A DNA stretch of 16,625 bases. Origin: a virus. Position numbers and translations under genes: made by a program. How positions within the stretch are numbered: position 1 is the stretch's first letter; every line of letters starts with the position of its first letter. The notes under the pieces were generated by a model. That model ran no database searches. It was not told the DNA's origin and was given only the letters and a program-made list of their open reading frames with translations. Positions 5,863 to 14,310 of this stretch are shown here, one piece after another. The stretch lies in the UHGV virus genome UHGV-1607792; one strand, written 5' to 3'.

Positions 5863-7473
5863 TCAACATTCTACGTACGAGCCATCAGTGTTTTCAACAA
5901 GCACTTTGATGCTCAAGCCTACATCTGTGCCAGCTTGGCTTCTGATAAGTGGCACAATGTCTTTTGATTGTGGCGCAATGTTGCCCATATTATCAATGTG
6001 CTCGTCATTGCCAATGAACTGCACATCTACTGATTTGATGACATCAAGCTCTTCAAGTTTTGCGATTGCAGCAGAACGACTAACGAATGTCGATGCATTT
6101 GACCATGAGTCTTCTACAAATGCTTTTGCAGCATCAAGCAATTGCTGCTTGACGTCTTCTATGTTTTGCAGTACTGCAGTCTTTTTGACAAGAATGAGCA
6201 TTTGATAAAATTCAAGCTGCACAGTGTCAAATTGCACATCAGTTAGCAACACATAGTCACCAGTGTTTTCGATAGCATTGTTCAGATATTGTCTATCTGT
6301 AGAGTCGATAGTGAATTCTGCTATTGGCAATGACCAGTAGTCATACACTATTGAGCCTGCTTTGACATACTTGTCTGCAATGTTGGGCACCAACACGACA
6401 TGAATTGTTTGAGTCTCTGTATTTGACCAGACATCAAGTATCTTGTACTGACCAAAGCGTGACATGAATGCTCTGATTGAATCTGCTGAGTGCAACACAA
6501 GTGCCCTGTTAATTGAGCCTGCATGTGAACGTATAGATTCGATGTCTTCACCATTGTAACCACCTACAATGTCTGTCAACTGTTCAATGACTAATACACC
6601 CTTTGGACTTACTGCAGTAGTGTTTGCATCATACATGCCATTGACCCATTCAAATGTTGCATCATTGTCAATCAAAATGTTTCCTGCATAGCCCTCACAT
6701 GCAGTGTATTCTACATTGACGACTGCATTTTGTGCAGGAATTTGACCAGCAGTACCATTGCCAAACACAATCTGTAGTTTGCCATCATATGACCAGCGTT
6801 CAATGTACCCCTTGCTGTATCGGTCCATTTCATCAAACCCTGCATAGCGAGTCCACAGCTCATTGCCAACTGTGACAGTCAATGAATCTTCAGATACAAT
6901 CAAGTTGCGTTCTTCGATAGTGAATGTTGTCATTGACTCACCATCAGAAATATATTGCTGAGACTTGCGTTCACCTTGTCTAACTGCGAATTCATATCGT
7001 ACACCAGTCAACTCATTGTTGATGTTGAGTTGCGCAAAGTCTTGATGCATATCGATGTAGTACATCAGCGAGTTCTCTTTGCATTTAATTGCTGCGTATC
7101 GTTTAATGAACACAGTTGGACCAAGCTCTTTGACTGCGTCATATGAAAAACTCAATGCAATTTTGCCCGATGCTGCAATGCCACCAACACATTTGTAACA
7201 TGCAAGCTGTGCAAGTCCTCGTACAGATGCGGTCTGTTCTGCAGTAAGCAAGTTGTTTTCTTTTGTGCCTACTACAATTTGCGTAAAGATGAGTGACGCA
7301 AGTTCTCTGAAACTCTGAACAAGAATTCCAAAAATTGTGTACTTACCATATTGTTTCTTTGTAGAGTTCAGCAAATTCTGCAGCCAAGTATCTATAGACT
7401 GTGACACACCTGAATATGACATCTGCATTTTCTGCATCCATGTCATATTGTCACGAGTGTTATTTGTGCGCAT
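5863..7473 (-). CDS. hypothetical protein, 536 aa
   Basis: ORF track starts at a TTG (7596) and translates the tandem repeats and terminator palindrome; the first ATG is 41 codons in (MRTNNTRDNMTWMQ...), at 7471-7473. A-rich leader without SD. Stop TGA at 5863-5865. Confidence 0.8.
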   Translation of the reverse strand: MRTNNTRDNMTWMQKMQMSYSGVSQSIDTWLQNLLNSTKKQYGKYTIFGILVQSFRELASLIFTQIVVGTKENNLLTAEQTASVRGLAQLACYKCVGGIAASGKIALSFSYDAVKELGPTVFIKRYAAIKCKENSLMYYIDMHQDFAQLNINNELTGVRYEFAVRQGERKSQQYISDGESMTTFTIEERNLIVSEDSLTVTVGNELWTRYAGFDEMDRYSKGYIERWSYDGKLQIVFGNGTAGQIPAQNAVVNVEYTACEGYAGNILIDNDATFEWVNGMYDANTTAVSPKGVLVIEQLTDIVGGYNGEDIESIRSHAGSINRALVLHSADSIRAFMSRFGQYKILDVWSNTETQTIHVVLVPNIADKYVKAGSIVYDYWSLPIAEFTIDSTDRQYLNNAIENTGDYVLLTDVQFDTVQLEFYQMLILVKKTAVLQNIEDVKQQLLDAAKAFVEDSWSNASTFVSRSAAIAKLEELDVIKSVDVQFIGNDEHIDNMGNIAPQSKDIVPLIRSQAGTDVGLSIKVLVENTDGSYVEC

Positions 7474-7498
7474 ATCAGTTAATTTGTTTGTATATGTA

Positions 7499-7572
7499 TT
7501 CGAATGTGCACACATGAGAATAGGTCTCTTCGAATGTGCACATATGAGAATAGTCTCTTCGAATATGCGCAC
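7499..7572. repeat. 2.5 tandem copies of a 30-bp direct repeat; each unit stacks three palindromic cores (TTCGAA, TGTGCACA, CATATG)
   Basis: Unit 1 at 7499-7528: ttcgaatgtgcacacatgagaataggtctc. Unit 2 at 7529-7557: ttcgaatgtgcacatatgagaatagtctc. Partial unit at 7558-7572: ttcgaatatgcgcac. Lies between a terminator and the ATG of the 536-aa gene. Confidence 0.8.
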
Positions 7573-7603
7573 AAAAAGAAGAGCTTGCATATGCAAGCTC
7601 TTC
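7573..7603 (-). terminator. intrinsic (Rho-independent) terminator candidate
   Basis: Perfect 26-bp palindrome gaagagcttgcat|atgcaagctcttc (7578-7603), giving an 11-bp stem and ATAT loop, followed on the minus-strand transcript by UUUUUGUG. About 43 nt downstream of the 127-aa gene stop. Confidence 0.7.
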
Positions 7604-7645
7604 CATCGCCAAAACCTATCTAATTATGGAAACACCTCTGAAAGG

Positions 7646-8029
7646 TCAAATTATGAATCGTTTTGTGATTGGCCTGAAGTCTTCTGGCAAATCATAACGT
7701 TTTGTGATTGTTACATCGCAAACAAGCAAATCGTTCATTTGTGTAGCAGATTTTGTAATGAAACAGTTGACAGACCATTCAAACAAATGCTGCGTAACGC
7801 TATAGTTTTTGAGTGCTGTAATGATATGTGATTGAATTGTTGCTGTCGAAATGCTTCTGTGATAAAGCGCAGCATCAATCTTCTCGACATCAAACATAAT
7901 GTCAATTTCATTCAAAAAGACGCGCAATGAATCAGTTGTTTGCAATTCATCATCTTCTTGAGTTTCTACAAAGTCAATGCCTTGCAGCTCTTGTGACATT
8001 TGTGATGTATCGAAACGATTATCTGACAT
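7646..8029 (-). CDS. hypothetical protein, 127 aa
   Basis: ATG at 8027-8029, 6 nt after the TAG of the 436-aa gene; TGA at 7646-7648; followed on the minus strand by a hairpin plus U-tract terminator. Confidence 0.7.
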   Translation of the reverse strand: MSDNRFDTSQMSQELQGIDFVETQEDDELQTTDSLRVFLNEIDIMFDVEKIDAALYHRSISTATIQSHIITALKNYSVTQHLFEWSVNCFITKSATQMNDLLVCDVTITKRYDLPEDFRPITKRFII

Positions 8030-10402: not shown

Positions 10403-11299
10403 CTACAGTGTTCCGCAAAGTAATTCACGTAAATCCATGCCAGCTTGTGTGCTGTATTGAGCAATCATGTTGCGTTCAGCTTCAGACATGCTCCAATAGA
10501 TTTTGTGAAAACTGCGTTTGATAATTGTATGAATGCCAGATGTGCTACAGTTGAGCTTCTTTGCAAGTTCTGCATGAGTTAGCAAATCAGCATCGCCAAG
10601 GCCATATACATGCGTAAGTACGAGCTTTTCATTTTGTGTGAGCTGTTCAAATGCTCTTTGCAGAATCTTTGTGTTGCGTTTGTGAGCATCCTCGATTTCA
10701 AGAACTTCTTGACCTGTTTTGAAGTCTGACCTCAAATCATTCTGAACTGGCGACCATGTATCGCCATCTTTGTCAAGTGTAGTGTCATCTTTGCTGGTGA
10801 ATTGTTTGACTTCAAGAACTCTTTCATATGCTCCACGAATACCAGTAGATAATTGTTGACTTGTCAGATTGAGTTCGTCAAGCACATATTTCTTAATCCA
10901 AGGATATGCATATGTGCTAAACTTTGCTTCACGAACTCCTGCAGGCAATACGCCTTCTACGTAATTCTTGGCTGCTATTGACAATCCAAGATTGCCTGCT
11001 TGAATGACATCATCCAATGGAACCGAGCGTTTGCCAGATGCGAACCATAAGCTTCGTGCAACTGATATGACCAATCTTAAACAAGATTTGATAAGAGCTT
11101 CACGATTTTCTTGAGTCTTCTTGAATCGAGTAACATCACAATATCGCTTTGCAGTAGCCAGCGATTTGACTTCTTCAGGAGTAAGCTCATTCTCCATCCT
11201 CATTTGCTTGAGCTCTTCCTTTGTGTATAGACGTTCTCTTGTGATTCTACCTACGTCCTTTACGTAGCCTTGATTGATTTGTGAATTTGAACCTGCCAT
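10403..11299 (-). CDS. sigma-70 family RNA polymerase sigma factor, 298 aa
   Basis: Region 2 signature: LRLVISVARSL...LDDVIQAGNLGLSIAAKNY...KFSTYAYPWIKKYVLDEL, compared from memory with the E. coli RpoD segments LRLVISIAKKY / LIQEGNIGLMKAV / KFSTYATWWIRQAI. Region 4 helix-turn-helix: LTHAELAKKLNCSTSGIHTIIKRSFHKI. ATG at 11297-11299, TAG at 10403-10405. Flanked upstream by a 133-bp AT-rich gap and downstream by a GC-rich hairpin terminator. Confidence 0.85.
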   Translation of the reverse strand: MAGSNSQINQGYVKDVGRITRERLYTKEELKQMRMENELTPEEVKSLATAKRYCDVTRFKKTQENREALIKSCLRLVISVARSLWFASGKRSVPLDDVIQAGNLGLSIAAKNYVEGVLPAGVREAKFSTYAYPWIKKYVLDELNLTSQQLSTGIRGAYERVLEVKQFTSKDDTTLDKDGDTWSPVQNDLRSDFKTGQEVLEIEDAHKRNTKILQRAFEQLTQNEKLVLTHVYGLGDADLLTHAELAKKLNCSTSGIHTIIKRSFHKIYWSMSEAERNMIAQYSTQAGMDLRELLCGTL

Positions 11300-11432
11300 G
11301 GTTGTGTAACTTATTTAGTTTTAATTTGTTATATAAATTTAATCATTTTTTGTCACATATGAAAATGTTTTGCACATTATTTTCACATAAAGTGTAAAAA
11401 AGTTATGAACATTTTGTTAACACATGTAGACA
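11300..11432 (-). promoter_or_regulatory. AT-rich intergenic region upstream of the sigma gene; candidate promoter and repeated TTTTG(T)CACAT elements
   Basis: 133 bp with no ORF. On the minus strand: GTGACA (plus 11351-11356), 17 nt, TATAAC (plus 11328-11333), about 25 nt upstream of the ATG, resembling a sigma-70 -35/-10 pair (5/6 and 5/6). Three spaced copies of ttttg(t)cacat(a/t) on the plus strand. The promoter assignment is inference only. Confidence 0.4.
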
Positions 11433-14167: not shown

Positions 14168-14239
14168 TGCAAAGTGCTTTTGCACTTTGATGCAAAGTAC
14201 TGCGTACACAACATGCAATGCATAAATTTGCATTTATGC
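14168..14239. promoter_or_regulatory. palindrome cluster in the leader of the 192-aa gene
   Basis: caaagtgc-tttt-gcactttg (14170-14189) with a near-copy caaagtac (14193-14200) that could pair with the same central arm; and gcataaat-ttgc-atttatgc (14220-14239). Confidence 0.5.
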
Positions 14240-14257
14240 TGCTGTTTTACGCTGAGC

Positions 14258-14297
14258 ACCCTGCGTAAAATAGTGAAATGCTTATTTTACGCAGGGT
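14258..14297. other. perfect 15-bp inverted repeat (stem-loop) immediately downstream of the BACON-repeat gene; no U-tract on either strand
   Basis: accctgcgtaaaata (14258-14272), 10-nt loop, tattttacgcagggt (14283-14297). Coordinates confirmed against the frame of an overlapping track ORF. Possible terminator, RNA processing site or protein-binding palindrome. Confidence 0.6.
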
Positions 14298-14310
14298 ACG
14301 TCAGGTTAAA

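Follow-up and report, generated by a model that had tools for sequence, protein, structure and literature searches.

A strain-variable tandem repeat between a terminator and a promoter-like motif upstream of the baseplate gene of a large gut phage

The window, by which we mean the whole stretch of 16,625 nt of viral DNA analysed here, belongs to a gut phage of ~175 kb; the same locus is found on two IMG/VR contigs of 174.6 and 175.6 kb (IMGVR_UViG_3300045988_152288, _149023) with 99% protein identity. A profile search of IMG/VR returned nothing beyond those two contigs, and megablast of the whole window against GenBank phages gave no DNA-level match. At the protein level, distant relatives are found in jumbo phages of Chryseobacterium, Tenacibaculum, and Sphingomonas (PAU) and in Prevotella phages. 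Since genes neighbouring the locus in the relatives encode BACON domains and the start codons of the window lack Shine-Dalgarno sequences, a Bacteroidota host is likely. All genes and long ORFs of the window lie on the minus strand, and the region studied is set in a late structural module containing baseplate, sigma factor, and tail-like genes. Read along the minus strand, the stop codon of a 127-aa gene (7646) is followed by a terminator, a tandem array, the motif TACATAT (7498–7492), and the ATG of the baseplate gene at 7473. The features considered below are as follows.

10403–11299, minus strand: sigma factor gene, 298 aa, with regions 2 and 4 present
7646–8029, minus strand: 127-aa upstream gene, its product acidic (pI 4.5) and conserved across the phage family
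7573–7604, minus strand: intrinsic terminator with a 12-bp G+C-rich stem, a 4-nt loop, and a U5 tail, invariant in 12 strains
7558–7572, minus strand: distal partial unit of the array, variable core GTGCGCATA plus TTCGAA; the core differs in L001, L163/L164, L167, and L169
7529–7557, minus strand: full unit 1, GAGAC-TATTCTCATA plus TGTGCACA plus TTCGAA, 29 nt; one such unit is missing in the 1.5-unit strains
7499–7528, minus strand: full unit 2, promoter-side, GAGACC-TATTCTCATG plus TGTGCACA plus TTCGAA, 30 nt; adjoins the promoter motif, with the non-core parts invariant in 12/12 strains
7483–7502, minus strand: putative late promoter core, TACATAT at 7498–7492, extended form TACATATACAAAC, score 19.9 with a position weight matrix (PWM)
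7463–7475, minus strand: a perfect 13-nt inverted repeat has its downstream arm here (ATATGCGCACAAA, which spans the start codon) and its partner at 7563–7575 in the first unit
5863–7473, minus strand: baseplate-wedge (gp6/J-like) gene, 536 aa (phrog_219, E = 2.6e-22), true start ATG at 7473–7471

Tandem Repeats Finder placed the repeat at 7499–7573 (period, 30; copies, 2.6; matches, 89%; score, 120), and a repeat search gave three copies in register, beginning at 7499, 7529, and 7558, with a period of 29–30. Read from TTCGAA, the array runs GTGCGCATA / TTCGAA GAGAC TATTCTCATA TGTGCACA / TTCGAA GAGACC TATTCTCATG TGTGCACA / TTCGAA, and its last TTCGAA passes straight into TACATATACAAACAAATTAACTGAT and then the ATG at 7473. 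Both Tandem Repeats Finder and the parsing of units reveal head-to-tail units with a partial flanking unit, as in a variable-number tandem repeat (VNTR) or minisatellite. The 2.5 direct repeats that an earlier note on this DNA had described after the terminator are real and their order on the minus strand was given correctly; the unit length, however, is not fixed and drifts between 29 and 31 bp, because of a 1-nt indel polymorphism between GAGAC and TATTCTC in the middle of the constant part.

The palindromes are less regular than had been claimed. TTCGAA is present in all three copies (7499, 7529, and 7558), TGTGCACA in two (7505 and 7535), the third copy reading TGCGCACA with its palindrome TGCGCA at 7566, and CATATG in a single unit (7541), the other CATATG (7588) being the loop of the terminator. 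Of three dyad-symmetric cores ascribed to each unit, TTCGAA alone holds throughout, and the description was overstated. Palindromes of 6 bp are more crowded in the array than anywhere else in the window (8 in 120 nt versus a typical 1–2). Duplication of the unit means that the same palindromes enter this count repeatedly, a single unit having two or three. The cores sit in a 13-nt alternating pyrimidine-purine tract (CATATGTGCACAT), where chance palindromes are several-fold likelier, and this tract largely accounts for the palindromes of the TGTGCACA cores. Over the window as a whole, sequences within one mismatch of TGTGCACA are strongly depleted (10 found versus 32.7 ± 5.7 expected), and GTGCAC is confined to the array. 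A restriction-site decoy seems a doubtful reading of the array, 6-bp palindromes as a class showing only a mild deficit (233 observed versus 279 expected).

The array is non-coding, and the 577-aa ORF that begins at a TTG is an artefact, as the earlier note had supposed. The N-terminus counted from the ATG at 7473 (M1, R2, N4, T6, and D8) is invariant in relatives at 55–81% identity (alignment A1), and 1-nt indels in L001, L002, and L164 break the frame of the supposed N-terminal extension. When coding of this extension was assessed, neither its frame nor its residues were conserved, the relatives starting at MRT. Public gene calls of 565 and 575 aa run through the repeat and propagate the same artefact. 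Two other ORFs of the window, of 537 and 176 aa, have TTG starts (13046 and 10315, respectively) that fall inside promoter-like motifs, and the gene calls of L159 use downstream ATGs for them, giving 527 and 166 aa; these ORFs are N-terminal extension artefacts of the same kind.

The terminator with a hairpin and a U-tract that had been proposed between the 127-aa and 536-aa genes was confirmed. On the minus strand, a perfect 26-nt palindrome at 7603–7578 (GAAGAGCTTGCATATGCAAGCTCTTC) is followed by TTTTT (7577–7573), and the structure ranks first in a terminator scan of the window, with an RNA hairpin energy of −22.3 kcal/mol. Derivation of the repeat unit from the terminator was considered and set aside, the shared GAAGAG...CTCTTC-like ends and the occurrence of TGCACATT in the L153 terminator loop being suggestive, not significant. 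The 127-aa protein has orthologues in L154 and L156 with 42–52% identity; it had no match in Pfam, PHROG, or PDB, and its AlphaFold model (pLDDT, 63) gave no significant match in Foldseek. Being acidic and having no family, PDB, or fold match and no DNA-binding signature, it was discarded as a candidate activator.

Downstream of the array, TACATAT belongs to a recurrent motif. In this phage and its relatives, TACATAT occurs at 3.4/kb in intergenic DNA versus 0.43/kb in genes, an 8-fold enrichment, and 11 of the 12 intergenic sites are located 25–45 nt upstream of a start codon, often directly after the T-tract of a terminator. Eleven TACATAT sites went into the PWM, whose consensus is TnnG-TACATAT-nnnAA and in which a −35 element is not conserved; it detects three strong sites in the window, all on the minus strand (13046–13027, 10316–10297, and 7502–7483). 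A weaker site of the same consensus is present at 369–350. Comparison of the intergenic layout in this phage and relatives at 55–81% identity (L153, L154, L156, L158, and L159) revealed a common order of an optional tandem array, a terminator hairpin, a T-tract, 0–60 nt, TACATAT, 18–45 nt, and ATG. We infer that TACATAT probably marks a −10-only class of late promoter, possibly recognised by the sigma factor that the phage encodes and not previously described for these phages; the array would then be positioned directly upstream of the putative promoter.

Late promoters of T4 are −10-only elements (TATAAATA). With them the motif TACATAT(A)nAAAC shares its shortness, its AT-richness, the lack of a conserved −35 element, and the presence of a phage-encoded sigma factor, and its placement right after terminators and before structural genes is likewise reminiscent of T4-type −10-only promoters. 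The sequence of the motif, however, differs from that of T4, and the sigma factor here keeps regions 2 and 4, unlike T4 gp55. In L156 the terminator T-tract adjoins TACATAT, so that little upstream sequence can be required. The orthologous promoter-like site of L154 reads CTTTCAAATACATATA, and the proximal TTCGAA thus looks like an ancestral promoter flank. In the PWM comparison, the other TACATAT sites share no upstream element with the site at 7502–7483, and a general upstream motif of the form TTCRAA or TGCACAT showed no enrichment beyond the arrays themselves. The possibility that the units are duplicated promoters was rejected, as the 11-site PWM gives no positive score within any unit. 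Two more terminators consisting of a hairpin and a T-tract (10375–10350 and 13081–13055, minus strand) are each located directly upstream of a TACATAT, and with them the structural region is cut into short terminator-promoter cassettes.

The behaviour of the array among close relatives was followed in 12 near-identical sequences from about ten datasets (~99% protein identity). Copy-number variation among related genomes, which the earlier note had proposed to look for, was indeed seen: nine of the 12 have 2.5 units (the window, L001, L002, L159–L162, L164, and L169), three have 1.5 units (L163, L167, and L168), and a relative at 81% protein identity has none, a variation characteristic of a VNTR. 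The gene calls of the 1.5-unit strains fall in clusters of 565-aa proteins, among them a cluster of 39 sequences. The units look shuffled among strains, L168 combining the first unit of the window with the TTTGCACA core of L164. Variants of the TGTGCACA core (TGTGCGCA, TGTGTACA, TGCGCGCA, ATGCGCAT, TTTGCACA, and TGTGCATA) occur at about the neutral rate, and the promoter-proximal core is non-palindromic in three of the 12 strains, L167, L168 (TTTGCACA), and L169 (TGTGCATA). The remainder of the unit behaves differently. TTCGAAGAGAC and TATTCTCAT are without substitution in every unit of the 12 strains, TTCGAA is unchanged in every unit of every strain, and zero substitutions were found in the terminator with its T-tract (31 nt) and in the 42 nt that stretch from the proximal TTCGAA to ATGCGCACAAA. 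In the same 12 strains, variable columns amount to 28–34% at the third codon positions flanking the spacer, 12% over all coding sequence, and ~13% in the stop-to-terminator spacer; windows of coding sequence are equally invariant in 6.2% of cases for 20 nt, 3.4% for 26 nt, 2.0% for 31 nt, and 0% for 46 nt. Since the cores vary about neutrally and lose their symmetry, the palindromic cores are not the selected feature; selection may act on the constant segments TTCGAAGAGAC and TATTCTCAT. With strains this close to one another and not independent, the evidence of constraint is moderate, and the invariance outside the cores could partly reflect a hypermutable core beside a young repeat.

In more distant genomes the array is absent or replaced. 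In L153 (81% protein identity) the terminator is followed by 55 nt to the ATG with no repeat, and L156 and L157 likewise have no repeat between the terminator and the baseplate ATG; L154 and L158 have unrelated arrays in the same spacer, upstream of the terminator (19 bp × 5 and 14 bp × at least 2.6, respectively). With the array missing in the 81% relative and one unit dispensable in three strains, the array is not essential. Nor is the unit dispersed. The 14-mer TGTGCACATTCGAA is found only at the array in both 175-kb contigs, which the earlier note had named in advance as part of an outcome that would tell against its binding-site proposal; parts of the unit are absent from the rest of the window, and none of 185,579 species genomes contains the unit. 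A dispersed operator was rejected on the basis of this uniqueness, the other 28 viral matches of the 14-mer being single chance matches. A scan of viral contigs with TACATATACAAACNA was too unspecific, and there was nothing useful among the matches listed.

Strong tandem arrays in the related loci are nearly all intergenic, with six in 3.5 kb of intergenic DNA, and their units are mutually unrelated. A 16-bp intergenic array (TATCATTGCATAGAAA) has five copies in L156 (17596–17679) and two in L157 (11058–11210), despite which the baseplate genes of L156 and L157 are 100% identical. Intergenic VNTRs appear, from these sequences, to be a trait of this phage family, which suggests that either replication in these phages is prone to slippage or repeats in the spacers are put to use time and again. 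Further unrelated arrays with periods of 14–19 bp are present in spacers of L154 (9211–9256, 9722–9815, and 18855–18906), L158 (4–39), and L156 (17716–17748), and the arrays of these three relatives are mostly located between a stop codon and a terminator. The Logan contigs L155 and L158 start at an array or immediately past one, so that arrays probably break k-mer assemblies.

Based on the layout and the strain comparison, we favour, with about as much belief as doubt, the interpretation that the array is a lineage-specific VNTR forming a functional upstream region of a late-type promoter. The TACATAT(A)nAAAC promoter would restart transcription of the baseplate genes just past the terminator of the preceding unit, with the array filling ~95 bp upstream. 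The array, inferred to arise, expand, and contract by replication slippage or unequal recombination between units, would influence the promoter, if it acts at all, at the DNA level as its upstream region; TTCGAAGAGAC, TATTCTCAT, and the proximal TTCGAA would be the candidates for recognition by a transcription factor or for contact with the polymerase, and the copy number would set both the number of sites and the terminator-promoter distance. A promoter-linked cis element is still plausible because the array adjoins a conserved promoter-like motif. It is also possible, although we are inclined to doubt it, that the array is a neutral minisatellite, a recent product of slippage or unequal crossover in a tolerant spacer that only lengthens the gap between terminator and promoter. 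The polymorphic copy number, the absence from the 81% relative, the uniqueness of the unit in the genome, and the freely varying cores are all consistent with neutrality, as are the unrelated 14–19 bp arrays in the spacers of relatives (one with 5 versus 2 copies in otherwise identical genomes) and the match to the locus-specific, fast-evolving intergenic repeats of Borg elements (PMC9879509). Less easily accommodated is that the non-core parts have no substitutions, versus ~30% at synonymous positions and ~13% in the stop-to-terminator spacer. Intergenic space in phages is usually kept short, which also argues against a neutral repeat.

The binding-site array for a dimeric protein that the earlier note had put forward, in which the stacked palindromes (TGTGCACA, TTCGAA, and CATATG) would serve as operator or activator sites flanking the promoter at about three helical turns, is in our view quite unlikely. 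The cores are centred at 7568.5, 7538.5, 7508.5, and 7469.5, bracketing TACATAT at spacings of 30, 30, and 39 bp, TTCGAA is never altered, and the direct repeats to which Ltr/RinA/ArpU activators bind upstream of late promoters in phages provide a precedent (PMC3753634). The 8-bp palindrome, however, is the most variable part of the unit, its symmetry being lost in L164, L167, L168, and L169, and dyad symmetry is not kept by selection; the restriction of CATATG to one unit and a unit length of 29–31 bp also speak against such sites, and no second site exists elsewhere in the 175 kb. The window contains no HTH regulator except the sigma factor, the 127-aa protein having a pI of 4.5, and the fourth core, TGCGCA, which overlaps the start codon, is fixed by the conserved MRT coding sequence. 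We regard as very unlikely a function at the RNA level, by which the first unit (UUUGUGCGCAUAU) would pair in read-through transcripts with AUAUGCGCACAAA and hide the baseplate start codon, with only transcripts begun at the downstream promoter being translated. The two arms form a perfect 13-nt inverted repeat (7575–7563 with 7475–7463) and are paired in the predicted fold (MFE, −68 kcal/mol; z-score, −6.1 over 221 nt), but the terminator hairpin contributes a large share of the z-score, and the cores, as variants of a palindrome, all pair with one another. Moreover, the complementarity is broken or shifted in L001, L163, L164, L167, and L169, a strong terminator precedes the array, and the relatives have no equivalent pairing. 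An Rfam search of the array region gave sub-threshold chance matches only (E, 0.08–0.18; scores far below the gathering thresholds). Iterons of a replication origin, which had also been suggested, or a packaging or partition site are extremely improbable. All that speaks in favour, and all that is shared with the iterons of the lambda ori and P1 incC/incA, is that the units are direct repeats a few tens of bp long; the array has just 1.5–2.5 copies, too few for iterons, sits in a late structural operon with no AT-rich unwinding region, no GC-skew inflection, and no initiator gene nearby, and is not conserved in relatives, being absent in L153 (the 81% relative) and L156.

Close parallels to the array exist among known repeats. 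As in bacterial and viral VNTRs (minisatellites) and the Borg repeats (PMC9879509), the array has head-to-tail units, a partial flanking unit, and a locus-specific unit sequence, and arrays originate independently in related genomes and change rapidly in copy number, with slippage or unequal recombination as the likely cause. Borg repeats are perfect, A-rich, and very numerous (PMC9879509), whereas the window array has 89% matches, is not A-rich, and comprises at most 2.5 copies; also unlike them, it is located exactly between a terminator and a promoter-like motif. The sites of Ltr-family activators (RinA, ArpU, and LtrC; Alt of TP901-1) upstream of the terS late promoter are lineage-specific short direct repeats that, like the array, lie close to a terminator and between the end of the preceding gene and the promoter of a late operon (PMC3753634), a promoter that in the window is putative. 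The Ltr-family repeats are ~7 nt long and lie just downstream of the activator's own gene (PMC3753634). In contrast, the gene preceding the window array encodes the acidic 127-aa protein, which has no Ltr/ArpU/sigma-like signature, and with its acidity and the lack of any family, PDB, or fold match, an Ltr/RinA-like arrangement is not supported.

A broader proposal, which we consider rather unlikely, is that hypervariable intergenic arrays in these large Bacteroidota phages act as copy-number-tunable cis-regulatory modules that tune the output of late promoters or the coupling between terminator and promoter. Their counterpart in bacteria would be promoter-repeat phase variation (contingency loci), and the window array would tune baseplate expression. 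If the array modulates the promoter, it would exemplify structural gene expression tuned by repeat number in a virus whose hosts abound in the gut, and would provide a handle on late transcription (TACATAT plus the phage sigma factor) in PAU/Lak-related Bacteroidota phages; if neutral, it is an ordinary VNTR. The array is a marker for strain typing and a cause of gene-calling errors.

Two further observations concern other intergenic regions of the window. The spacer at 14196–14310 contains a perfect hairpin with a 15-bp stem (ACCCTGCGTAAAATA ... TATTTTACGCAGGGT) at 14297–14258 on the minus strand, without a T-tract and followed by an inverted repeat (GCATAAAT/ATTTATGC) and a third copy of CGTAAAA, and it has no TACATAT. 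Upstream of the sigma factor gene, a box (GATTAAATTTATATA) at 11344–11328 on the minus strand is conserved in three lineages (the window, L154, and L156); it resembles the Bacteroidetes −7 element TAnnTTTG, suggesting that the sigma factor gene may be read by the host polymerase.
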